Positions 1-9,569 of a stretch of 64,000 nucleotides of DNA are shown here, in pieces (positions within the stretch are counted from its first letter, which is position 1; each line of letters begins with the position of its first letter). The stretch comes from Candidatus Altiarchaeia archaeon (GTDB taxonomy: Archaea; Altiarchaeota; Altiarchaeia; IMC4; QMZM01): assembly GCA_049299895.1 (NCBI GenBank), contig JBAQYF010000031.1, forward strand, positions 1,627-65,626, in the 5' to 3' direction. A model generated the notes under the pieces. That model was not told the DNA's origin and ran no database searches. It saw nothing but the letters and a program-made list of their open reading frames with translations. Both the position numbers and the translations under genes were made by a program.

Positions 1-1
1 G

Positions 2-648
2 GAGCTGTCGCCGGTTTCCGACGAGGAGAAGCCTTATGAGCTACCGAAGGGGTGGGAATGGGTGCGACTGAGTTCGATTTTGCGATTATGCAACTATGGT
101 ACTTCAGAAAAATCTTCCAAGTTGATCGATGGGGTTCCTGTTTTGGCTATGGGGAATATACAAAATGGGGCGATAGAATACGATAATGTGAAATATGTCT
201 CAAAGCATATTGAAGAACTGCCGGGGCGTTATCTCAAGAATGGTGATATCTTGTTCAATAGAACAAACAGCTATGAACTTGTTGGGAAAGCAGGTCTTTT
301 CGATGAACAATATGATCGATACACATTTGCATCCTACTTGATCAGAATACAGTTTTTTACGAAATATACGCTCCCCGATTTCGCTAACTACTATATGATG
401 TCGCAGACGTTCAGACAATAACAGATAGAGCCTCAGATAGTAAAGCAATGTGGACAGGCCAATTTTAATGGTACGAAATTAAAAAATACGTTGTTTCCGC
501 TTCCACCGTTATCCGAGCAGCGCCGCATCGTCGCCAAGGTCGACGAGCTTATGCGGCTCTGCGACGAGCTTGAGGCGCGGGTCAGGGAGGGGGAGAAGTA
601 TGCGGGGCTACTGCTGGATGCTATTTTAAGAGATGCGTTTGATAACTG
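2..648 (+). pseudogene. hsdS: Type I restriction-modification specificity subunit HsdS, 3' part (runs in from upstream of the window), interrupted by an in-frame TAA at 419-421
   Basis: Frame 2 is open from nt 2 (..ELPKGWEWVRLSSI..). It contains a TRD-like region and the conserved HsdS C-terminal motif NFNGTKLKNTLFPLPPLSEQRRIVAKVDELMRLCDELE. Listed ORF 62..421 ends at TAA 419-421; the same frame continues QIEPQIVKQ.. to the TGA at 646-648. Confidence 0.6.
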
Positions 649-667
649 ATTTTCTTACTAAATTTTC

Positions 668-1732
668 TTATTCCCCCAATATTTTTCCTGCTTTCTTGAA
701 TTCAGCGTAATACCTCATTAGAAAATCATGACGATTTTTTATTGAATAATCCTCTGCGCCAGCTTGTGTCAAATTCTTCTGGAACTCTAGAAGAGGGACA
801 AACTCCGGGTCAGGAAGAAATCCTTTCTTTATCTGTTCTTTGAGTTTAATATCTAAATGATTAAAGAGAAAATCATAAAAATTTGAGACTTCTTGTTCTG
901 GTTTATCTCTTTGTTTTAGTTCATCGACGACAAAAAATATGGATAACGCTAGACCTTTACTGTGAATTTTTTCTGCATAATCCCCCAGACTCGTTCCTAA
1001 GATAGCTAGAGTATTCTCAATGCCTTCTTTCTTATCAACTGGAATTGGGTTCTCAGCGTATTCATTAAAAAATTTTTTTAAGTCGTTGAATCTACATCTA
1101 GCAAAGTCTCTGTCTTTTGTATCATACCGTGAAAAATAGTTTATGCATATTTGAGCTAGTAACATTTCATCTCCAAATCTTCTTTTTGGAGATTTAATTA
1201 TTTTGAAAAACTTGGGAAATTCTTCCCCTTTTCTAAAAATAAAATCCCTCATATTCCCGGTCATAGAATTTAATTTCTCTCCTGAATTTAAGGGTTCTCC
1301 CAACTGTAATCTAAAGAATAATAAGTTTAACTCATCGTCATCTTCCAATTCATCAATTATGACGATGCTTAAAGGATACGGCTTAATCTTCGTTTGAAGC
1401 TCAGTTTTTAGTTCAGAGAAATATACCTCTTTTTCTGTTTGTTTAGACTCTTCTCGTAAGTCATGAATCGGCTTGAAACGATATTTGTTCATTAAAAATT
1501 CAGTGATCGCTTCTATTCTTTGTTGTCCGTCAACGACATCGTACCCGTCATCCGATTTATAAAAATAAAGTTTAGGGATATCAAAATCTCTCAGAATTGA
1601 GTCAATTAATGACTTCTTTTTTTCTAAACTCCATATTTTTGGATTTCTTTGGTATTCCTGAAAACTAAATTTCCCCTCTTTGAATAGATTAAAAAGTTTT
1701 TCTATGCTCCAAGATTCGATATGCTGCTTCAT
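668..1732 (-). CDS. DUF262 (ParB/Srx-like NTPase/nuclease fold, GmrSD N-terminal-type) domain protein with no DUF1524/HNH partner domain
   Basis: Hallmark DVVDGQQRIEAI motif near the N-terminus. 354 aa. Start overlaps the upstream SIR2 stop (ATGA). AT-rich. Confidence 0.7.
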   Translation of the reverse strand: MKQHIESWSIEKLFNLFKEGKFSFQEYQRNPKIWSLEKKKSLIDSILRDFDIPKLYFYKSDDGYDVVDGQQRIEAITEFLMNKYRFKPIHDLREESKQTEKEVYFSELKTELQTKIKPYPLSIVIIDELEDDDELNLLFFRLQLGEPLNSGEKLNSMTGNMRDFIFRKGEEFPKFFKIIKSPKRRFGDEMLLAQICINYFSRYDTKDRDFARCRFNDLKKFFNEYAENPIPVDKKEGIENTLAILGTSLGDYAEKIHSKGLALSIFFVVDELKQRDKPEQEVSNFYDFLFNHLDIKLKEQIKKGFLPDPEFVPLLEFQKNLTQAGAEDYSIKNRHDFLMRYYAEFKKAGKILGE

Positions 1733-2931
1733 TATGAATACCCCATAAATTTACTAAAATGAGGGTTATGCGAAGTGATTTCTATTTGTCGTGCTTCAAG
1801 TAATTCCCCTTTCATTTTTAACCAAGCTTCAAATATGTTTTGGGTGTCAGACCAGTAGTTACTTATATCAACATCTTTATTTAATTCATGTAATTTTCTC
1901 AAATCAGCCAAATCATATAGTGTTTCTAAGTTTCTCAAAAATGGATATGATTGCTTTATGTTTTGCCCTACATCATTAAAATCAATTAATTCTATATTAA
2001 ATCCCCTTTTTCCGTTTGCCAACCGTTGGGTTTGAAATAATAATTCTAACAATCCCCAATCATTCCTATTTAGCGAGCAACCAACTATTCTCAATACCTC
2101 GCAATCAATCATTATTTCTCTAGCCCTACCCCAGATCATATTATATGGATATACTTCTTTATTTTTCAATACCCCTGGTGGAATCCAATAAGTATCTGAT
2201 TCGGATAATTCAGTTATTCTATCAACCACAGATATGGGACTTGTTTTTTTCCAATTAAAAGAACCATGTAATTTTAGAAGAGGGGGTATAGCCTGGTCAA
2301 GATTCTGACTTAAAATTTTAATATTGTAATTAACACCCCCATAAACATTTCTGAATGCTAGATCAGTTAAGTCTTCATAATTTAAGGATATCACTCCATT
2401 CAAAGTTTCGTTCACCCCGGGGATTTTGTGATAATCTAACAGTGCTTGAGTTAAATGAGGGTGCAAACGGTTTTCTCCAGAAAAAAGGTTTTGTTTGAAA
2501 TAGTCCTGAAAATAGCTTTTAAGAGTTCTCGCAGCCTTTTTATATTCCGCATCATCAATAGTCTCAAACAAAGTAATGTAGTGTTCTATGTCAATACTTC
2601 GCCCATGCTTGTTCACTGACCTGCTTGAATGAATTTCAAAATATTTTTTAAGATCTTCAGCAGCTTTAGTATAATCATCTTGACCGATATCCTCAAGTAG
2701 TTTTACATAGTATTCTACATCGATTCCCGGTTCACATTCTTCACCACTTGGTTCATCATCGGTATTAACAATTAATTCATTTACGATATTTTTTAAAATA
2801 GGATCATCTCTACTTATTTTTTCAACAATTTTTTCTGTGATAGCGTCCGTGAGAAAACTTGAATCCCAAGAGGTGTAACCCCTTTCAGCCTCAGTTACTC
2901 CAGTACCAAATATATACGTAACCCTTACCAT
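1732..2931 (-). CDS. SIR2-like (SIR2_2 family) putative NADase, defence-associated
   Basis: N-terminal Rossmann motif IFGTGVT, then ISLNYEDLTDL (TTNYDxL-like), then LLKLHGSFNW (the KLHGS motif of defence sirtuins). 1-nt spacer from the upstream MTase. Confidence 0.6.
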   Translation of the reverse strand: MVRVTYIFGTGVTEAERGYTSWDSSFLTDAITEKIVEKISRDDPILKNIVNELIVNTDDEPSGEECEPGIDVEYYVKLLEDIGQDDYTKAAEDLKKYFEIHSSRSVNKHGRSIDIEHYITLFETIDDAEYKKAARTLKSYFQDYFKQNLFSGENRLHPHLTQALLDYHKIPGVNETLNGVISLNYEDLTDLAFRNVYGGVNYNIKILSQNLDQAIPPLLKLHGSFNWKKTSPISVVDRITELSESDTYWIPPGVLKNKEVYPYNMIWGRAREIMIDCEVLRIVGCSLNRNDWGLLELLFQTQRLANGKRGFNIELIDFNDVGQNIKQSYPFLRNLETLYDLADLRKLHELNKDVDISNYWSDTQNIFEAWLKMKGELLEARQIEITSHNPHFSKFMGYS

Positions 2932-2932
2932 C

Positions 2933-4165
2933 TTACTTGTGCCATATGATGATACTTTCTCTTGAAGGTTTTCTTTTATATTTCTTCATTTGTTGTGAAC
3001 TATTCCCTCTGTACCTAGCGATATAAATGTTCTGCGTTGTCAATCCTGCCTGTTCACCGATGTCCGCAAGTATTTCATCAACTGGAACATTAACGCCACA
3101 GAAACGGACATTACTTACCACGAGGGCGATCTTTCCTTTAGCCTTTAGACGTTTTTGCATCTGTGATAATGATAAGTACATGTCCTCGAAATAGCCCTCG
3201 ATCATTTCAGTCACTTTCGAATTGTTTGGGCCTCCTACCTCCACATCAGCTATTATATCACTAATTATTGATGGTTTCTTGTACCCTTTCGGCTCAAATT
3301 GCTTCTTCGCTTCAACGTGGGACCTAAGCGTGTTATACCTTATTTTCTTTAATTGGTCGTTGTTGTCAACGAAGTTAAAGATCATTTCTAGGCCGTAGAT
3401 ACGTGTATAATCGTGTCTGTTTGGGTACGGGGGCGAGGTTATTACAGCGTTGAACTTTCTGTCAGTTGGCAGCTTTCTTGAATCCCCGGTTTTCGCAATT
3501 ATTTTTGCGTTTTTGTACTTCAGAGTATCATAAAATGACTCGTAGTCCTGAATCATTTGAGCGACCTTTGCATTAAACTTAGGATACACCTCATCAGCAT
3601 TGACCTTCCGCTCAGAAATCCTTAAGAACCCTCCTGATTTGACGGTGTTACTAACGGACTCAAGGATGCTTAATAACCCCAGAGTATAAAAATCTCTGAC
3701 GTACGGGTCCCTTATTCTATCGATCTTCTCTTTTAAACTTAGTAGCTCCGTTTTTACATCTTCATTAAATGCCTTCTTGATCAGGTCTATATCAGGGAAT
3801 TCAAGGGAGGTAAACTTTAAGTTGCCATCATCCTCAAAATTCTTCAACTGTATTCGTAATTTTGTGGTGTCGTAGGTCCTGGTTTTTACATTTGATAGAA
3901 AAACAGAAAAGGGTAGGATATCGAAACCACTTGCATTGATTCCTGATTCCTTACAGGATAGCAGGGTTGTTCCTCCCCCACAGAAGCTGTCCAATACCCA
4001 AGAACCTCTCTTTAGGTCAAATTCATCTAACAGTTTTTCTACCAGTTCCTTTGAGTAACTGTGTTTAAATGCATGCCAGTTGTATAAAGGCGTCTCCTTA
4101 TCTCTGGCTGGTGAGATATATTGTCCAAAATCCTCTGTTTTTTCAATTAATTTTGAGTTGAGCAT
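2933..4165 (-). CDS. DNA amino-methyltransferase (N6-adenine or N4-cytosine; alpha-type motif order)
   Basis: Motif I DSFCGGGTT and motif IV ITSPPYPN. Paralogous to the MTase at 47697..48953 (shared YNW.., FC/DPFCGxGTT, TSPPY, C-terminal ..ES[IV][IV]I..K). Confidence 0.75.
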   Translation of the reverse strand: MLNSKLIEKTEDFGQYISPARDKETPLYNWHAFKHSYSKELVEKLLDEFDLKRGSWVLDSFCGGGTTLLSCKESGINASGFDILPFSVFLSNVKTRTYDTTKLRIQLKNFEDDGNLKFTSLEFPDIDLIKKAFNEDVKTELLSLKEKIDRIRDPYVRDFYTLGLLSILESVSNTVKSGGFLRISERKVNADEVYPKFNAKVAQMIQDYESFYDTLKYKNAKIIAKTGDSRKLPTDRKFNAVITSPPYPNRHDYTRIYGLEMIFNFVDNNDQLKKIRYNTLRSHVEAKKQFEPKGYKKPSIISDIIADVEVGGPNNSKVTEMIEGYFEDMYLSLSQMQKRLKAKGKIALVVSNVRFCGVNVPVDEILADIGEQAGLTTQNIYIARYRGNSSQQMKKYKRKPSRESIIIWHK

Positions 4166-4262
4166 GCTGTAAGTAATTTTAATAACCTATTTTAAATACT
4201 CCGAGAGGCTCCTAGAATAGTGAATAAGTAATCCATAGGGTTTGCTGACGGGTACCACTTCC

Positions 4263-5189
4263 TCAGTACCCAATCGCCTTCATCGCCGGTATGCCCCTCG
4301 CTCTTTCCTGTAAATCCTTGAATATCTTCGTCTTCCCGTGGAGGTATTTGCCTTCTTCGATGATCTCTGCTTCCGTCGCTATCTGGTGGAGGTGGTTTTC
4401 GAATTTGGTCTTGAATTGGGCTCCGAGGCCTGTGTTGTATAGTCTTTTGTGTTCGAGCATAAGTTCGTCCGTCGTGGTATAGATCAGTTGCTGCGCTCTT
4501 AATGCAAGCGAGTAATAGGTGTTTGCGATCCGCAGGAACGGTACGATCGACGTCAGCCTTAGATGTTCTATGAAGTATTTTTTGCCGTCTTTCAGGGCGT
4601 ATCCTACGACGTATGTGATCACGTCTTGTTCTTTTTCCTGCTGGATGAGTTTTTCTATTTCTATGTATGCGTTTCCTCGTTCGTATTCTTTTCCTTTGGT
4701 TTTTCTTATGAGGTGCTGTGATTCCAGGAGGTCGAAGTATTTTCTCTGATTGATCCTGAAGTTTGCAGGGTTTGCCGAGTCGTTCTTGTTTATTTTTGTG
4801 AGTATGGAGTATATGGGGTTTAGGTTGGTCTTTACAAGGGATAGTTTAGCTAAGTAGCGGTATGTGGCGTCCAGGACGATCGCTTCGGTGTCAAGGGACA
4901 GCTCATAGCGTTTTTTGTAGGCCTTGGTATACAACTCCATCCGGTCGAACCTGGATTTGGGCTTCAGGCTTCCATCAAAGTTATAGTCGTATGTGCCGAC
5001 GTTGTCGAATTTCACGTATCTTAGGTGTTCTTCTTCGCCGTCAGTGTAATTTTTTATTATCTCGGGAAAGGCTACGCCGAACGCTATCCTGTATGCGTCC
5101 TTCTCCACTCTGCTGTAATCGTTTGCATAGACCTGCGGCCCTATCTTTCTTATTATGTATTCGTCTATGACCCCTTTTGTTAGTTCCAT
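4263..5189 (-). CDS. Hypothetical protein (308 aa), no recognisable domain; coupled to the upstream peptidase
   Basis: Long ORF. Its start is 1 nt from the stop of the upstream C39-like peptidase gene. AT-rich island. Confidence 0.5.
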   Translation of the reverse strand: MELTKGVIDEYIIRKIGPQVYANDYSRVEKDAYRIAFGVAFPEIIKNYTDGEEEHLRYVKFDNVGTYDYNFDGSLKPKSRFDRMELYTKAYKKRYELSLDTEAIVLDATYRYLAKLSLVKTNLNPIYSILTKINKNDSANPANFRINQRKYFDLLESQHLIRKTKGKEYERGNAYIEIEKLIQQEKEQDVITYVVGYALKDGKKYFIEHLRLTSIVPFLRIANTYYSLALRAQQLIYTTTDELMLEHKRLYNTGLGAQFKTKFENHLHQIATEAEIIEEGKYLHGKTKIFKDLQERARGIPAMKAIGY

Positions 5190-5190
5190 T

Positions 5191-5784
5191 TTACAAATAC
5201 GGTGATATTCTTGTTTGCTTCGACTTTTGTGTAAGGCATATCATCCTGCTTTTGGACTTGGACCACGCAGAAAGGAAAGCCTTATAGTCTATTTTTCGCA
5301 TAGCCTTATAATCGTATGTTTTTTTGCTGGCGTTGTCCTCTGGATCCCATATGCAGATTTCTTCTTTGTCCTCATTGTACCCGACGACTACGACGGCATG
5401 ATATCCTATCACGTCTGGGTCTCCTTTGGCCTTTATGCCTTTAGATAGGTAGTATTCTTCTGTGTTGAGGATTACGATCGGATAGCATCCTGACACTATA
5501 GTCTCCAGAAGCTTGTTTTTTGAAACATTTATGTCCTCAGTGACGGCGATAACATGGTTTTCGAGGAGTTTCTGAAGGGAGGACTGTATGTCGTCGAGGC
5601 CTTTAGGCACGTAGGCGTTGTATTTGTCCAGCCGGTCGCTAGTAGCCTCGATGATTTTCCGCAGACTTATTTTATAGTTGAACTGGTTGTCTATTACCGT
5701 TTTTACGCATGCAGGTATACACATCATCGGTTGCTGCTGGTGCGAGGGATTCTTTAACCTGAGGAAGTGCATACGCGGAATCAT
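5191..5784 (-). CDS. Papain-like cysteine peptidase, C39-like domain (standalone)
   Basis: Catalytic-Cys context PMMCIPACVK and His motif GYHAVVVVGYNEDKEEICIWDP, matching the C39 H[YF]VV..G....I.DP pattern. Confidence 0.5.
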   Translation of the reverse strand: MIPRMHFLRLKNPSHQQQPMMCIPACVKTVIDNQFNYKISLRKIIEATSDRLDKYNAYVPKGLDDIQSSLQKLLENHVIAVTEDINVSKNKLLETIVSGCYPIVILNTEEYYLSKGIKAKGDPDVIGYHAVVVVGYNEDKEEICIWDPEDNASKKTYDYKAMRKIDYKAFLSAWSKSKSRMICLTQKSKQTRISPYL

Positions 5785-5934
5785 CTTATACTGCCGGAAT
5801 AGAGTATTTAATGTATATTATTCGAATTATGGGTTAAAGAGGTATATCTACCGATTTCGAAGGGATATACGCTACGAAGCCTAAATACAGTGTAAGAGCC
5901 GCGAAAAATGAATCTATAAGAGGATATAATCAAT

Positions 5935-8141: not shown

Positions 8142-9569
8142 ATGGTCGGCGAAAAAACCAGGAGAAAAAAATCCAGAATGCTCAGAGAGGAACCGGGGGA
8201 AGAGCCGAAGGTCGATGGAAAGATCATTAATTTCACCGTCACGCAGGCTGATGACTTGGACGCTGCCCTGCATTTCTACAACCCCTGGTGGACGGGGGAA
8301 ATGCCAAAGTATCTGACAAAAGAATACAAAAGAGATGTATACCAGAAACTGGAAAAATACCTGGGCCTGAACCGCATAGTGATCCTCAAAGGACCCAGGA
8401 GAGTTGGAAAGACAACTCTCATGTATCAGTTGATAGAAAAGCTCGCAAAGGAAATCGACAGCAGGCAGATATTGTATGTCTCATTCGACGACCCGAAACT
8501 GAAAGACTTTGATGCGATACTTGAAAAATACCAGACAACCATACTGCAAAACAGCCTGGAAAGCAAGCAGACCTACTTTTTCCTGGACGAGGTGCAGTAC
8601 CTCAAGGACTGGCAATACCACCTCAAAAAGTACTACGACAGGAACTACCCGATAAAGTTCATAGCCTCGGGTTCGTCCGCGACCATGATAAGACAGGGCA
8701 CCGAATCACTAATGGGAAGAACCGTCGAAGAGACAATTCTCCCCTTCTCGTTCAAGGAATACATGCAGTATAAGCTGAAAAGAGTAGTAGCGATTAAGCC
8801 CGACGCAGATAGCATAGAAATAAAGAAATACGAAAAAGACGCAAAGATACTCTTCGAAGAATACGTACTGAAAGGAGGATTCCCCAACATATTCGACGTA
8901 CGGGAACCGGAACTATGGGAAAAACTGATCAAAGAAGACATAATAGACAAAGTCATATACAAAGACATAGCCACACAGTACGACATAAAGAGACCGGAAA
9001 ACCTGGAAAAACTATTCCTGTACCTGACATCGATCAACGGACAGATCCTCAACGTAAGCAACATTGCGGGCAGCCTGCAAATGAGCGTCGAATACACAAG
9101 CAAATACATACAATACCTGAAAAACAGCTATCTAATACTCGAAGCAGGGAAATACGCTGCGAGCATCGAAAAAACGATCAGATCAAGCCAGAAGGTGTAC
9201 GTGATCGACCCGGGGATCGTAAACTCGCTACTCAGCAAGACAAAGACGGATGAAGCGGGACATACTATCGAATCGGTGATAGCGGTTCACCTGCAAAGGC
9301 AGGGGCTAGAATATTATTACTGGAGAGAATACTACGAAGTGGACTTTGTAATAGAAACGAAAGAAGGACCGCTGCCGATAGAAGTGAAATACGGTAACCA
9401 CCCGACGAAAGAGGATTTGAAAGGGCTAATAAAGTTCATGGATAAATACGACTGCAAGAAGGGACTTGTGGTGACAAAAGACCTCCGGCAGACAATTGAC
9501 GCGGGCGGGAGAAAGGTTGAGTGCGTGCCTGCGTGGCTGTATCTACTCTGGGAAAACGTGAAAAGATAA
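8142..9569 (+). CDS. AAA+ ATPase of the AAA_14/DUF4143 family
   Basis: Walker A GPRRVGKTT, DUF4143-like C-terminus. Paralogous to 53308..54615. Confidence 0.7.
   Translation: MVGEKTRRKKSRMLREEPGEEPKVDGKIINFTVTQADDLDAALHFYNPWWTGEMPKYLTKEYKRDVYQKLEKYLGLNRIVILKGPRRVGKTTLMYQLIEKLAKEIDSRQILYVSFDDPKLKDFDAILEKYQTTILQNSLESKQTYFFLDEVQYLKDWQYHLKKYYDRNYPIKFIASGSSATMIRQGTESLMGRTVEETILPFSFKEYMQYKLKRVVAIKPDADSIEIKKYEKDAKILFEEYVLKGGFPNIFDVREPELWEKLIKEDIIDKVIYKDIATQYDIKRPENLEKLFLYLTSINGQILNVSNIAGSLQMSVEYTSKYIQYLKNSYLILEAGKYAASIEKTIRSSQKVYVIDPGIVNSLLSKTKTDEAGHTIESVIAVHLQRQGLEYYYWREYYEVDFVIETKEGPLPIEVKYGNHPTKEDLKGLIKFMDKYDCKKGLVVTKDLRQTIDAGGRKVECVPAWLYLLWENVKR

Follow-up and report, generated by a model that had tools for sequence, protein, structure and literature searches.

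A methylase–SIR2–DUF262 gene cassette beside a peptidase gene pair in an Altiarchaeia archaeon: a candidate modification-linked defence system

Layout of the Region

On contig JBAQYF010000031.1 of a Candidatus Altiarchaeia archaeon (assembly GCA_049299895.1, positions 1,627–65,626 of the forward strand) five genes lie side by side on the minus strand between metG and an interrupted hsdS gene. The whole stretch of 64,000 nucleotides (nt) that was analysed is called the window here, and positions refer to it. A reading of the sequence alone, here called the original prediction, had taken the five genes as one tightly coupled candidate defence operon. All five open reading frames were recovered as predicted. 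In the direction of transcription these are a peptidase gene (5191–5784, 197 amino acids, Pfam Peptidase_C39_2 with E 9.4e-7 and 29.9 bits at a cut-off of 24), a gene for a 308 amino acid protein without Pfam match (4263–5189), a methylase gene (2933–4165, 410 amino acids, N6_N4_Mtase, E 4.1e-10), a gene for a SIR2-like protein (1732–2931, 399 amino acids, SIR2_2, E 1.4e-5), and a DUF262 gene (668–1732, 354 amino acids, GmrSD_N, E 2.4e-15). The predicted domains are thus all backed by Pfam, SIR2_2 by a score only just above its cut-off (25.7 bits at a cut-off of 24.5).

A single nucleotide separates the peptidase gene from the 308 gene, and the methylase gene from the SIR2-like gene, which agrees with the spacing described before; the SIR2-like stop codon and the DUF262 start codon, on the other hand, share one nucleotide (TAATG) and do not form the ATGA overlap that had been reported. 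Between the 308 gene and the methylase gene lies a spacer of 97 nt on the minus strand (4166–4262, read directly from the sequence). It contains a TATA-like element, TATTTAAAATA, at positions 4188–4198, which begins 33 nt ahead of the ATG of the methylase gene and is probably the own archaeal promoter of the three genes that follow. Because of this gap and its TATA-like element the region consists of two tight groups of genes and not of five coupled ones. The AT-rich island of the original prediction is likewise confined to the methylase, SIR2-like and DUF262 genes (668–4165), which have a GC content of 35.5% and a GC content at third codon positions (GC3) of 26–44% in a window of 48.7% GC. 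The peptidase and 308 genes are host-like, with 44–45% GC and a GC3 of 55–59%, the GC3 of metG being 65%.

Two Units Side by Side

Ten close relatives of the 308 amino acid protein were found, one of them 98% identical. The contig of this relative (JGI) carries metG, a reading frame of 303 amino acids, the peptidase gene, the 308 gene, a reading frame of 186 amino acids, a split hsdS, hsdM, and hsdR, and the methylase, SIR2-like and DUF262 genes are missing from it. Compared with the window, the 303 amino acid frame is an extra gene between metG and the peptidase gene, where the window has the slot 5785–5934, and the 186 amino acid frame occupies the place of the trio; at least two variable slots for insertions are therefore present 3' of metG. 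Since the trio is absent from a relative which keeps a near-identical 308 gene, the methylase, SIR2-like and DUF262 genes are a horizontally acquired cassette. A search of 76 loci retrieved through relatives of the SIR2-like protein yielded no homologue of the peptidase or of the 308 amino acid protein, and the peptidase/308 pair occurs without the trio in nine other contexts. The compositional break, the separate TATA-like element, the gene order of the relative, and the 76 loci together indicate that the trio was inserted beside a resident gene pair. Very probably, then, the region holds two independent units, the trio cassette (668–4165) and the peptidase/308 pair (4263–5784). Repeats or att sites were looked for on both sides of the trio, with short AT-rich chance matches as the only result.

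The SIR2-DUF262 Pair

A protein search returned 206 relatives of the SIR2-like protein with lengths of about 330–400 amino acids, and 70 loci came from a scan in which each GTDB species was represented by one genome. The loci span more than 15 phyla, and almost all of them come from metagenome-assembled genomes. They are found in Acidobacteriota, Dehalococcoidia/Chloroflexota, Omnitrophota, Patescibacteria, Bacteroidota, Ignavibacteria, Nitrospirota, Verrucomicrobiota, Zixibacteria, Latescibacterota, and Proteobacteria among the bacteria, and in Aenigm-, Bathy- and Haloarchaea among the archaea. For linkage counts the window proteins were used as phmmer queries against all open reading frames of the retrieved loci. 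Genome and contig searches together gave 63 distinct loci with a true member of the SIR2 family, 61 of which had room downstream. A DUF262 gene follows directly 3' of the SIR2 gene on the same strand in 58 of these 61 loci, with a median gap of 4 nt, and the three exceptions look disrupted, having truncated genes or 1.2–1.6 kb in between. Pairwise protein distances of the two families are correlated with r = 0.97 (54 pairs) and r = 0.96 (32 pairs), as compared to r = 0.14–0.19 for the distances of the adjacent methylases against either of them. The SIR2-like and DUF262 proteins therefore form one evolutionary unit, and the methylase is exchangeable. As to carriage on mobile elements, no relatives were detected in the viral_contigs scan, nor by tblastn against 72,556 plasmids.

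Frequent neighbours of the cassette are other defence genes, such as type III restriction-modification genes, SRA-HNH genes, and AbiEi. In three bacterial loci (L017, L018, and L055) the trio adjoins a type III restriction-modification system with a res helicase-endonuclease of about 884 amino acids, and L018 and L055 also carry a mod methylase of about 652 amino acids beside it. In the Bathyarchaeia loci L002–L004 and L011 (7163–7933; 14.5–17 kb) the order SIR2-DUF262-methylase comes directly after a type IV-like SRA-HNH gene, and terminase and portal genes are located a few kilobases away, a setting which suggests a provirus or the junction of a defence island.

In the SIR2-like protein, asparagine 184 in the motif LNYD/E (LNYE in the window) and histidine 222 in KLHGSFNW are invariant among 22 family members. 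The two residues are 38 positions apart, as in other SIR2 enzymes. The glycine-rich loop near the N-terminus is conserved as well and reads YLFGAGAT in the family and YIFGTGVT in the window. An AlphaFold2 model reached a predicted local distance difference test score (pLDDT) of 83.5, and Foldseek placed the SIR2 subunit of SIR2-HerA first among its structural neighbours (E 2e-9), followed by DSR2 and classical sirtuins; a profile search against sequences of the Protein Data Bank (PDB) agreed, with SIR2-HerA and DSR2 closest. From these features the protein is predicted to be an NAD+-consuming effector. Another finding was a tandem duplication of a helical segment of about 30 residues, with one copy at residues 69–98, IDVEYYVKLLEDIGQDDYTKAAEDLKKYFE, and the other at 113–142, IDIEHYITLFETIDDAEYKKAARTLKSYFQ. 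The two copies align with a score of 82 as compared to 22.5 ± 4.6 for shuffled sequences. Among 22 aligned relatives the duplication was found in the window protein only, and the model has low confidence in the linker that joins the copies.

The DUF262 protein matched the PADLOC profile NsnA over nearly its whole length (E 8.5e-28, residues 6–339 against profile positions 49–376 of 385), and six other members of the family gave a full-length NsnA match too. Such a match implies an architecture of a ParB-DUF262 NTPase domain followed by a C-terminal ParBDB-like DNA-binding domain (PMC12065111). The motifs YQR..W, DG(Q)QR (residues 68–72 in the window), and F..L..G..LN.GEKL are kept across the 54 partners. 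In agreement with the original prediction, Pfam searches at E ≤ 0.1 detected no DUF1524 or HNH domain in any of the five proteins. With its DUF262 and ParBDB parts the protein is a predicted sensor of DNA or of DNA modification.

The Partner Methylases and Their Nucleases

In the window methylase motif I (DSFCGGG, residue 59) precedes motif IV (SPPY, residue 244), and the protein matches the PADLOC profile MTase_II PDLC03224 over its full length (E 1.9e-75). Its homologues (E 1e-100 to 1e-187) adjoin the SIR2-DUF262 pair in 19 loci. When all neighbours were clustered and searched with Pfam, a methylase of the N6_N4 type was found within 2.7 kb of 50 of the 54 pairs with adequate flanks, often translationally coupled to the pair with gaps of 1–17 nt. 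Elsewhere in these loci of about 14 kb there was only one further methylase match. The combination of methylase, SIR2-like protein and standalone DUF262 protein, which had been noticed in a single genome, is thus a recurrent one. The adjacent methylases belong to two circularly permuted classes, one of about 410 amino acids with motif I before motif IV, as in the window, and one of about 337 amino acids with motif IV before motif I. In both classes motif IV is SPPY, 50 times out of 50, so that where the methylase was exchanged another SPPY enzyme took its place.

Amino-methyltransferases with SPP(Y/F) as motif IV typically act on the N4 position of cytosine, those with (D/N)PP(Y/F) on the N6 position of adenine. 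By this general rule the motif suggests that the partner methylases make N4-methylcytosine (m4C). Searches of the PDB yielded no relatives of the window methylase. For the 337 amino acid class the best PDB match was 2zie, a 'putative modification methylase', and N4-cytosine methyltransferases matched in the region of motif I only, so that the comparison is not decisive. Literature searches for a confirmation of M.BsoBI, M.AvaI, and M.XhoI as m4C enzymes brought nothing usable.

Some of the sister loci also contain a restriction endonuclease. A homologue of R.XhoI (PF04555, E down to 1.7e-79) lies beside the pair in 11 loci, usually between the methylase gene and the SIR2 gene, and a homologue of R.BsoBI (PF09194, E 1.4e-134) in four; one locus has an XcyI-type enzyme. 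The recognition sites of these enzymes are related, being CTCGAG for XhoI, CYCGRG for BsoBI, and CCCGGG for XcyI. There are accordingly three architectures, methylase-SIR2-DUF262 as in the window, methylase-R.XhoI-SIR2-DUF262, and methylase-R.BsoBI-SIR2-DUF262. Neither this embedding in XhoI- or BsoBI-type restriction-modification nor the SPPY motif of every partner methylase had been noted in the original prediction. In the DUF262 tree the clade with the 337 amino acid methylases holds loci with and without R.XhoI, which shows that the nuclease is dispensable while the methylase and the pair persist. In the window cassette the SIR2-DUF262 pair sits in the place of the restriction endonuclease.

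Two further observations concern the methylases. In the Aenigmatarchaeota loci L001 and L010 (5265–7245) a second SPPY methylase and an endonuclease of the MvaI/BcnI type lie just 5' of the pair, and a convergent methylase of the window type is present downstream in addition, so that two modules of the restriction-modification type flank one SIR2-DUF262 pair. The window methylase itself is closest to methylases from Patescibacteria (L024 and L063), and the phmmer match to L024 (E 4e-187) is the strongest to any locus. The SIR2-like and DUF262 proteins of the window are far more diverged, with at most 48% identity to any relative. The window methylase has either been much more constrained than the pair or has been swapped recently.

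A Possible Mechanism and Its Alternatives

SIR2 proteins of characterised defence systems, namely Thoeris, DSR, SIR2-HerA, and SIR2-pAgo, deplete NAD+ upon sensing an infection (PMC13064643). DUF262 is an NTPase domain which senses DNA modification in GmrSD, BrxU, and SspE (PMC10952713), and the domain following it binds DNA (PMC10952713; PMC12065111). For a DUF262 protein that senses a mark of the host and then activates an effector there is a precedent in SspE, where the mark is a phosphorothioate (PMC10952713). A ParB-like protein in a restriction-modification locus is known from AbiR in the LlaKR2I locus of Lactococcus, which needs the methylase and is toxic without it (PMC13064643).

On this background the trio may be an abortive infection system resembling restriction-modification, in which the methylase marks, the DUF262 protein reads, and the SIR2-like protein consumes NAD+. 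This reading, taken together with the arrangement in two units, is given a probability of roughly 0.55. The SPPY methylase, which the obligate pair would need as a resident partner, would mark the host genome. The DUF262-ParBDB protein would, like SspE, GmrSD, and NsnA, bind DNA as a sensor that depends on NTP, and would read the DNA or its modification state. DNA lacking the mark would cause the DUF262 protein to switch on the SIR2-like protein, and the ensuing hydrolysis of NAD+ would arrest or kill the infected cell. In cassettes of the window type the pair would replace the restriction endonuclease; in sister loci with a nuclease of the XhoI or BsoBI type it would form a second, abortive layer sharing the same methylase. 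That the missing mark is the specific trigger is held with a little less than even confidence. The linkage and co-evolution of the genes, the intact catalytic motifs, the SIR2 fold, and the arrival as a cassette are what the sequences show; NADase activity, control by the modification state, m4C as the product, and the role in defence are predicted from them. The evidence fits the hybrid of restriction-modification and abortive infection which had been suggested from the window sequence.

A wider proposal, made only tentatively, is that the pair and an SPPY methylase constitute a new class of methylation-based immunity, widespread in uncultivated bacteria and archaea, in which the N4-methylcytosine status would be read by the ParB/DUF262 protein and the output would be depletion of NAD+ and not cleavage of DNA, the logic of restriction-modification being tied to a suicide effector. 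What is read could be incoming DNA on which the mark is missing, or m4C nucleotides set free when the host chromosome is degraded, and the effector pair may be pluggable into different m4C methylases and into existing restriction-modification systems of the XhoI or BsoBI type.

Several points weigh against a marking methylase with an NAD+-depleting pair. Sensing of a missing mark needs recognition of a specific sequence, and it is awkward that the methylase phylogeny is nevertheless uncoupled from that of the pair (r = 0.14–0.19), unless all partner methylases share one specificity. A cell that already cuts unmethylated DNA with a classical nuclease would seem to have little need of a suicide response to it as well. 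A single putative methylase chemistry shared by two structural classes is a weak point, as it could also be explained by a methylase that supplies an alarm signal, and the assignment of SPPY to m4C is drawn from general knowledge of motif IV. Four of the 54 pairs have no SPPY methylase nearby: in L013 it is 5.2 kb away, L050 has only a Dam-like methylase with DPPY, and in L058 and L060 the DUF262 gene is truncated. On the side of the effector, the SIR2_2 match barely exceeds its cut-off, and NADase, ADP-ribosyltransferase, and deacylase chemistry cannot be told apart by sequence. Finally, all homologues come from uncultivated organisms.

Among the alternatives, the one which survives best is an accessory type IV-like or guard module. 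Here the pair would respond to modified DNA of foreign origin or to an anti-restriction factor, with no part played by the methylase, and would merely travel with restriction-modification systems, like BrxU with BREX or PrrC with EcoprrI. About 15 loci do hold a complete system of the XhoI or BsoBI type beside the pair, and the frequency of type III restriction-modification, SRA-HNH, and AbiEi genes nearby points the same way. Modified DNA is the target of GmrSD and BrxU, the DUF262 systems that are characterised best, and methylated DNA is probably what Dazbog senses (PMC10952713). However, with few exceptions the partner is a methylase of one chemistry, often coupled with gaps of 1–17 nt, and not a random selection of defence genes; the methylase and the pair persist without the nuclease, and in the window cassette there is no nuclease that could be guarded. 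A guard module is considered unlikely.

Another alternative turns the role of the methylase around, which would then supply the signal instead of protecting the host. A virus degrading the m4C-marked chromosome would release N4-methyl-deoxycytidine nucleotides, these would bind to the ParB-like pocket (CTPase fold) of the DUF262 protein, and the SIR2 NADase would be turned on. Such an alarm derived from the methylome is suggested by the SPPY motif of all partner methylases across two unrelated permutation classes and several subfamilies, and also by their uncoupled phylogeny, which suggests that the system depends on what the mark is chemically and not on a recognition sequence evolving together with the pair. 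DUF262 domains are able to bind NTPs as well as dNTPs and to hydrolyse them (PMC10952713; PMC12065111), and a precedent is provided by the PUA-Cal-HAD system, which is reported to be triggered by m6-dAMP derived from Dam methylation (PMC12871103). The C-terminal ParBDB domain, however, points to binding of DNA and not of free nucleotides, the same data would follow if the conserved methylases of 408 amino acids simply had a common specificity, and the m4C product is itself deduced from what is known of the motif. This model is regarded as improbable.

The SIR2-like and DUF262 proteins might also be the two subunits of a restriction endonuclease which cleaves unmethylated DNA, and the cassette would then be an unusual type II restriction-modification system with no depletion of NAD+. 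The layout resembles a restriction-modification operon with the pair in the position of the nuclease, the PADLOC profile REase_II PDLC03418 weakly matches the N-terminus of the DUF262 protein (E 2.4e-6 to 6e-5), and in the work of Makarova et al. Sir2 and ParB figure among the nuclease folds associated with restriction-modification loci (PMC3506569; PMC3632139). Characterised defence SIR2 proteins, though, deplete NAD+ (PMC13064643), and the asparagine and histidine of the NAD site are invariant. Neither protein showed a known nuclease motif or domain in Pfam and PADLOC searches, and where R.XhoI or R.BsoBI is present a nuclease is there already. A two-subunit nuclease is therefore quite improbable.

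A single five-gene system, in which the peptidase would activate the 308 amino acid protein within the methylase-SIR2-DUF262 machinery as the original prediction had it, can claim five contiguous genes on one strand with gaps of 1 nt (peptidase/308) and 97 nt (308/methylase), and is highly improbable, being largely refuted already by the comparative data, with a peptidase or 308 homologue in none of the 76 SIR2-related loci, no trio in the relative which keeps both genes, the pair alone in nine other contexts, a GC3 of 55–59% versus 26–44%, and a TATA-like element of its own ahead of the methylase gene.

Relation to Known Systems

Scans with PADLOC v2, NCBIfam, and PHROGs gave matches at the level of domains only and no named system, and full-text literature searches brought up no account of the architecture, though a system named after 2023 may escape them. 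The original prediction had likewise known of no named system of this kind. In a neighbourhood survey of ParB-DUF262 proteins from 2025, which covers GmrSD, PD-T4-2, Dazbog, Ssp, and Menshen, SIR2 is never mentioned (PMC12065111). That Sir2 and ParB domains occur in restriction-modification loci was remarked in general terms by Makarova et al. (PMC3506569; PMC3632139). The cassette appears to be a modification-linked defence system assembled from known sensor and effector folds, unnamed and not categorically new.

A close parallel is SspABCD-SspE, which also combines a modification module with a DUF262/ParBDB-like sensor that reads the host mark and whose NTPase controls an effector (PMC10952713; PMC12065111). 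It differs in that SspABCD makes a phosphorothioate, whereas the mark of the cassette would be a base methylation set by a single SPPY methylase, and in that SspE carries a fused DUF1524 nickase while the putative effector of the cassette is a separate SIR2-like protein. AbiR in LlaKR2I contains a ParB-like protein alongside the methylase of a restriction-modification system, abortive infection being embedded in a type II locus (PMC13064643). AbiR has sigma70-like and Snf2-helicase/nuclease proteins and no SIR2, and the likeness is one of description only; the window cassette has a ParB-like protein with an adjacent methylase and neither a sigma-like nor a Snf2 protein.

With Menshen (NsnABC) the cassette shares the architecture of the DUF262 protein, NsnA being its best full-length match in PADLOC. 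Unlike Menshen it has a SIR2-like protein and a methylase and lacks the NsnB ABC-ATPase and the inPIN-nuclease effector NsnC; no match to NsnB (ABC-ATPase, AAA_15/DUF3696) or NsnC was detected in the window proteins or among conserved neighbours of 54 loci, and in the window the DUF262 gene is the last of the cassette, with the convergent hsdS coming next. GmrSD and BrxU have an N-terminal DUF262 NTPase with DGQQR as sensor of the DNA modification state (PMC10952713). They differ from the cassette, as does SspE, by a DUF1524 HNH nuclease, which the cassette has neither fused nor adjacent. As the pair is encoded together with a methylase, it is unlikely to attack the product of that methylase. 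Dazbog and PD-T4-2 resemble the cassette by a standalone DUF262 protein with a separate partner. PD-T4-2_A matches the DUF262 protein with E 1.8e-12, weaker than NsnA, and no PADLOC match to DzbA or DzbB was found in the window proteins (E ≤ 0.1) or in 10 family members (E ≤ 0.001). The partner in PD-T4-2 is a HEPN protein, of which there is none in the cassette, and neither system has a methylase or SIR2.

The SIR2 fold with conserved catalytic asparagine and histidine is shared with SIR2-HerA, DSR1/DSR2, ThsA of Thoeris, and SPARSA. In these systems the partner is HerA, a TIR/SLOG protein, pAgo, or a fused sensor, and there is no methylase, whereas in the cassette it is a DUF262 protein. No ATPase of the HerA/FtsK type occurs in the window cassette or among its conserved neighbours, and Pfam and PADLOC gave no match of a TIR, SLOG, or Ths model to the window proteins. 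With type II systems of the XhoI and BsoBI/AvaI kind the cassette has in common an adjacent N6_N4 methylase with motifs I and IV, and in about 15 sister loci the pair comes right after a homologue of R.XhoI or R.BsoBI. The window cassette differs by having no recognisable endonuclease beyond the weak PDLC03418 match.

If the proposed mechanism is true, discrimination of self and non-self by base methylation would be coupled to an abortive response that depletes NAD+ and not to a nuclease, which would bridge two main logics of prokaryotic immunity, the discrimination of restriction-modification and the suicide of abortive infection. The sensor roles of DUF262/ParB proteins known from GmrSD, SspE, and Menshen would extend to the control of a SIR2 protein in trans, and N4-methylcytosine would gain a specific biological role. 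The cassette occurs in more than 15 phyla, though in uncultivated lineages only, which accounts for its having escaped screens in E. coli and Bacillus and illustrates what such screens miss.

The Peptidase and Its Partner

The peptidase is a cytoplasmic papain-like protein of the C39_2 type with conserved cysteine (MCIPAC), histidine (YHAVVVVG), and aspartate (WDP), and the cysteine and histidine are kept in homologues down to 22% identity. The classical C39 model PF03412 stays below its cut-off. In the NCBI annotation the peptidase has 178 amino acids and starts just before the catalytic cysteine; homologues keep a longer N-terminus (HF..LKNP.HQQQ), which supports the start that gives 197 amino acids.

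The 308 amino acid protein proved as unrecognisable as had been described, with no match in Pfam, NCBIfam, or PHROG and no reliable one in PADLOC. The PADLOC matches of the peptidase to PDC-S47 (E 0.0012) and of the 308 amino acid protein to PDC-M01B (E 0.0032) were absent in homologues and were dismissed as noise. An exhaustive profile search delineated a family of uniform length, about 300 amino acids, with 148 representatives at E ≤ 1e-3 and 59 at E ≤ 1e-10. The contexts of the family comprise the contig of the 98% identical relative and L077, L078, L079–81, L082, L085, L087, and L088. A gene of about 200 amino acids precedes the 308-family gene immediately in every context with upstream sequence, with a gap of at most 37 nt or a short overlap. 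Wherever sequence or Pfam data exist this gene is a peptidase homologue or a Peptidase_C39_2 match with the cysteine and histidine kept, at profile E-values of 1e-19 to 1e-86 and, for one of them, a pairwise identity of 22% (E 5e-9). The peptidase and the 308 amino acid protein are thus an obligate pair in the contexts examined, as had been supposed. The surroundings are mixed: L077 has housekeeping genes, L087 an integrase, and L082 a transposase together with a Pol-beta nucleotidyltransferase. A scan of metagenomes for further contexts gave three loci with an alignment of close relatives, and no conserved stretch suitable for the scan was present in the divergent alignments.

The peptidase shares the papain-like cysteine and histidine with the C39 peptidases that process bacteriocins, and differs from them as a standalone protein of 197 amino acids whose partner is always a protein of about 300 amino acids. 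Since no ABC exporter adjoins the pair in nine contexts, the peptidase is not a bacteriocin-processing C39 enzyme. Pfam scans of 60 members of the 308 family and a PDB profile search gave marginal winged-helix signals (Sso10a winged helix-turn-helix, E 0.01; HTH_45), and the 308 amino acid protein may have a winged-helix region near residues 125–193, which makes it a DNA-binding candidate. An AlphaFold2 model, proposed in the original prediction as a check, was calculated from 10 close homologues, and with a pLDDT of 52 it was unreliable and too poor for a fold search. A peptidase acting on its partner of about 300 amino acids, the second hypothesis of the original prediction, would be compatible with the strict linkage. 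With low confidence, the two are suggested to be a protease with a DNA-binding regulator or a pair resembling toxin and antitoxin. As a second uncharacterised and strictly linked module the pair merits a name and a test. One member of the 308 family, P0124 with 338 amino acids, opens with the first approximately 30 residues of the peptidase, beginning MIPRSHFLELKNPQHQQQPMMCTPAC, and looks like the product of a deletion that joined the two genes, or like an error of assembly.

Flanking Genes

The 3' part of the type I hsdS gene (1–649, plus strand) is context and lies outside both modules. It matches PADLOC Specificity_I in two pieces (E 8.7e-34 and 9.7e-13) and is disrupted, as had been predicted, by one in-frame TAA at 419–421, both halves sharing the same frame. 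On the related contig hsdS is split as well, into 339 and 74 amino acids, and adjoins intact hsdM and hsdR genes, so that the disruption may predate the gain or loss of the trio. Beyond metG the window contains a gene for an ATPase of 475 amino acids with AAA_14 and DUF4143 domains (8142–9569, plus strand), which matches the PADLOC candidate single-gene system PDC-S01 with E 1.3e-84. Thus metG has genes of the defence type on both sides.

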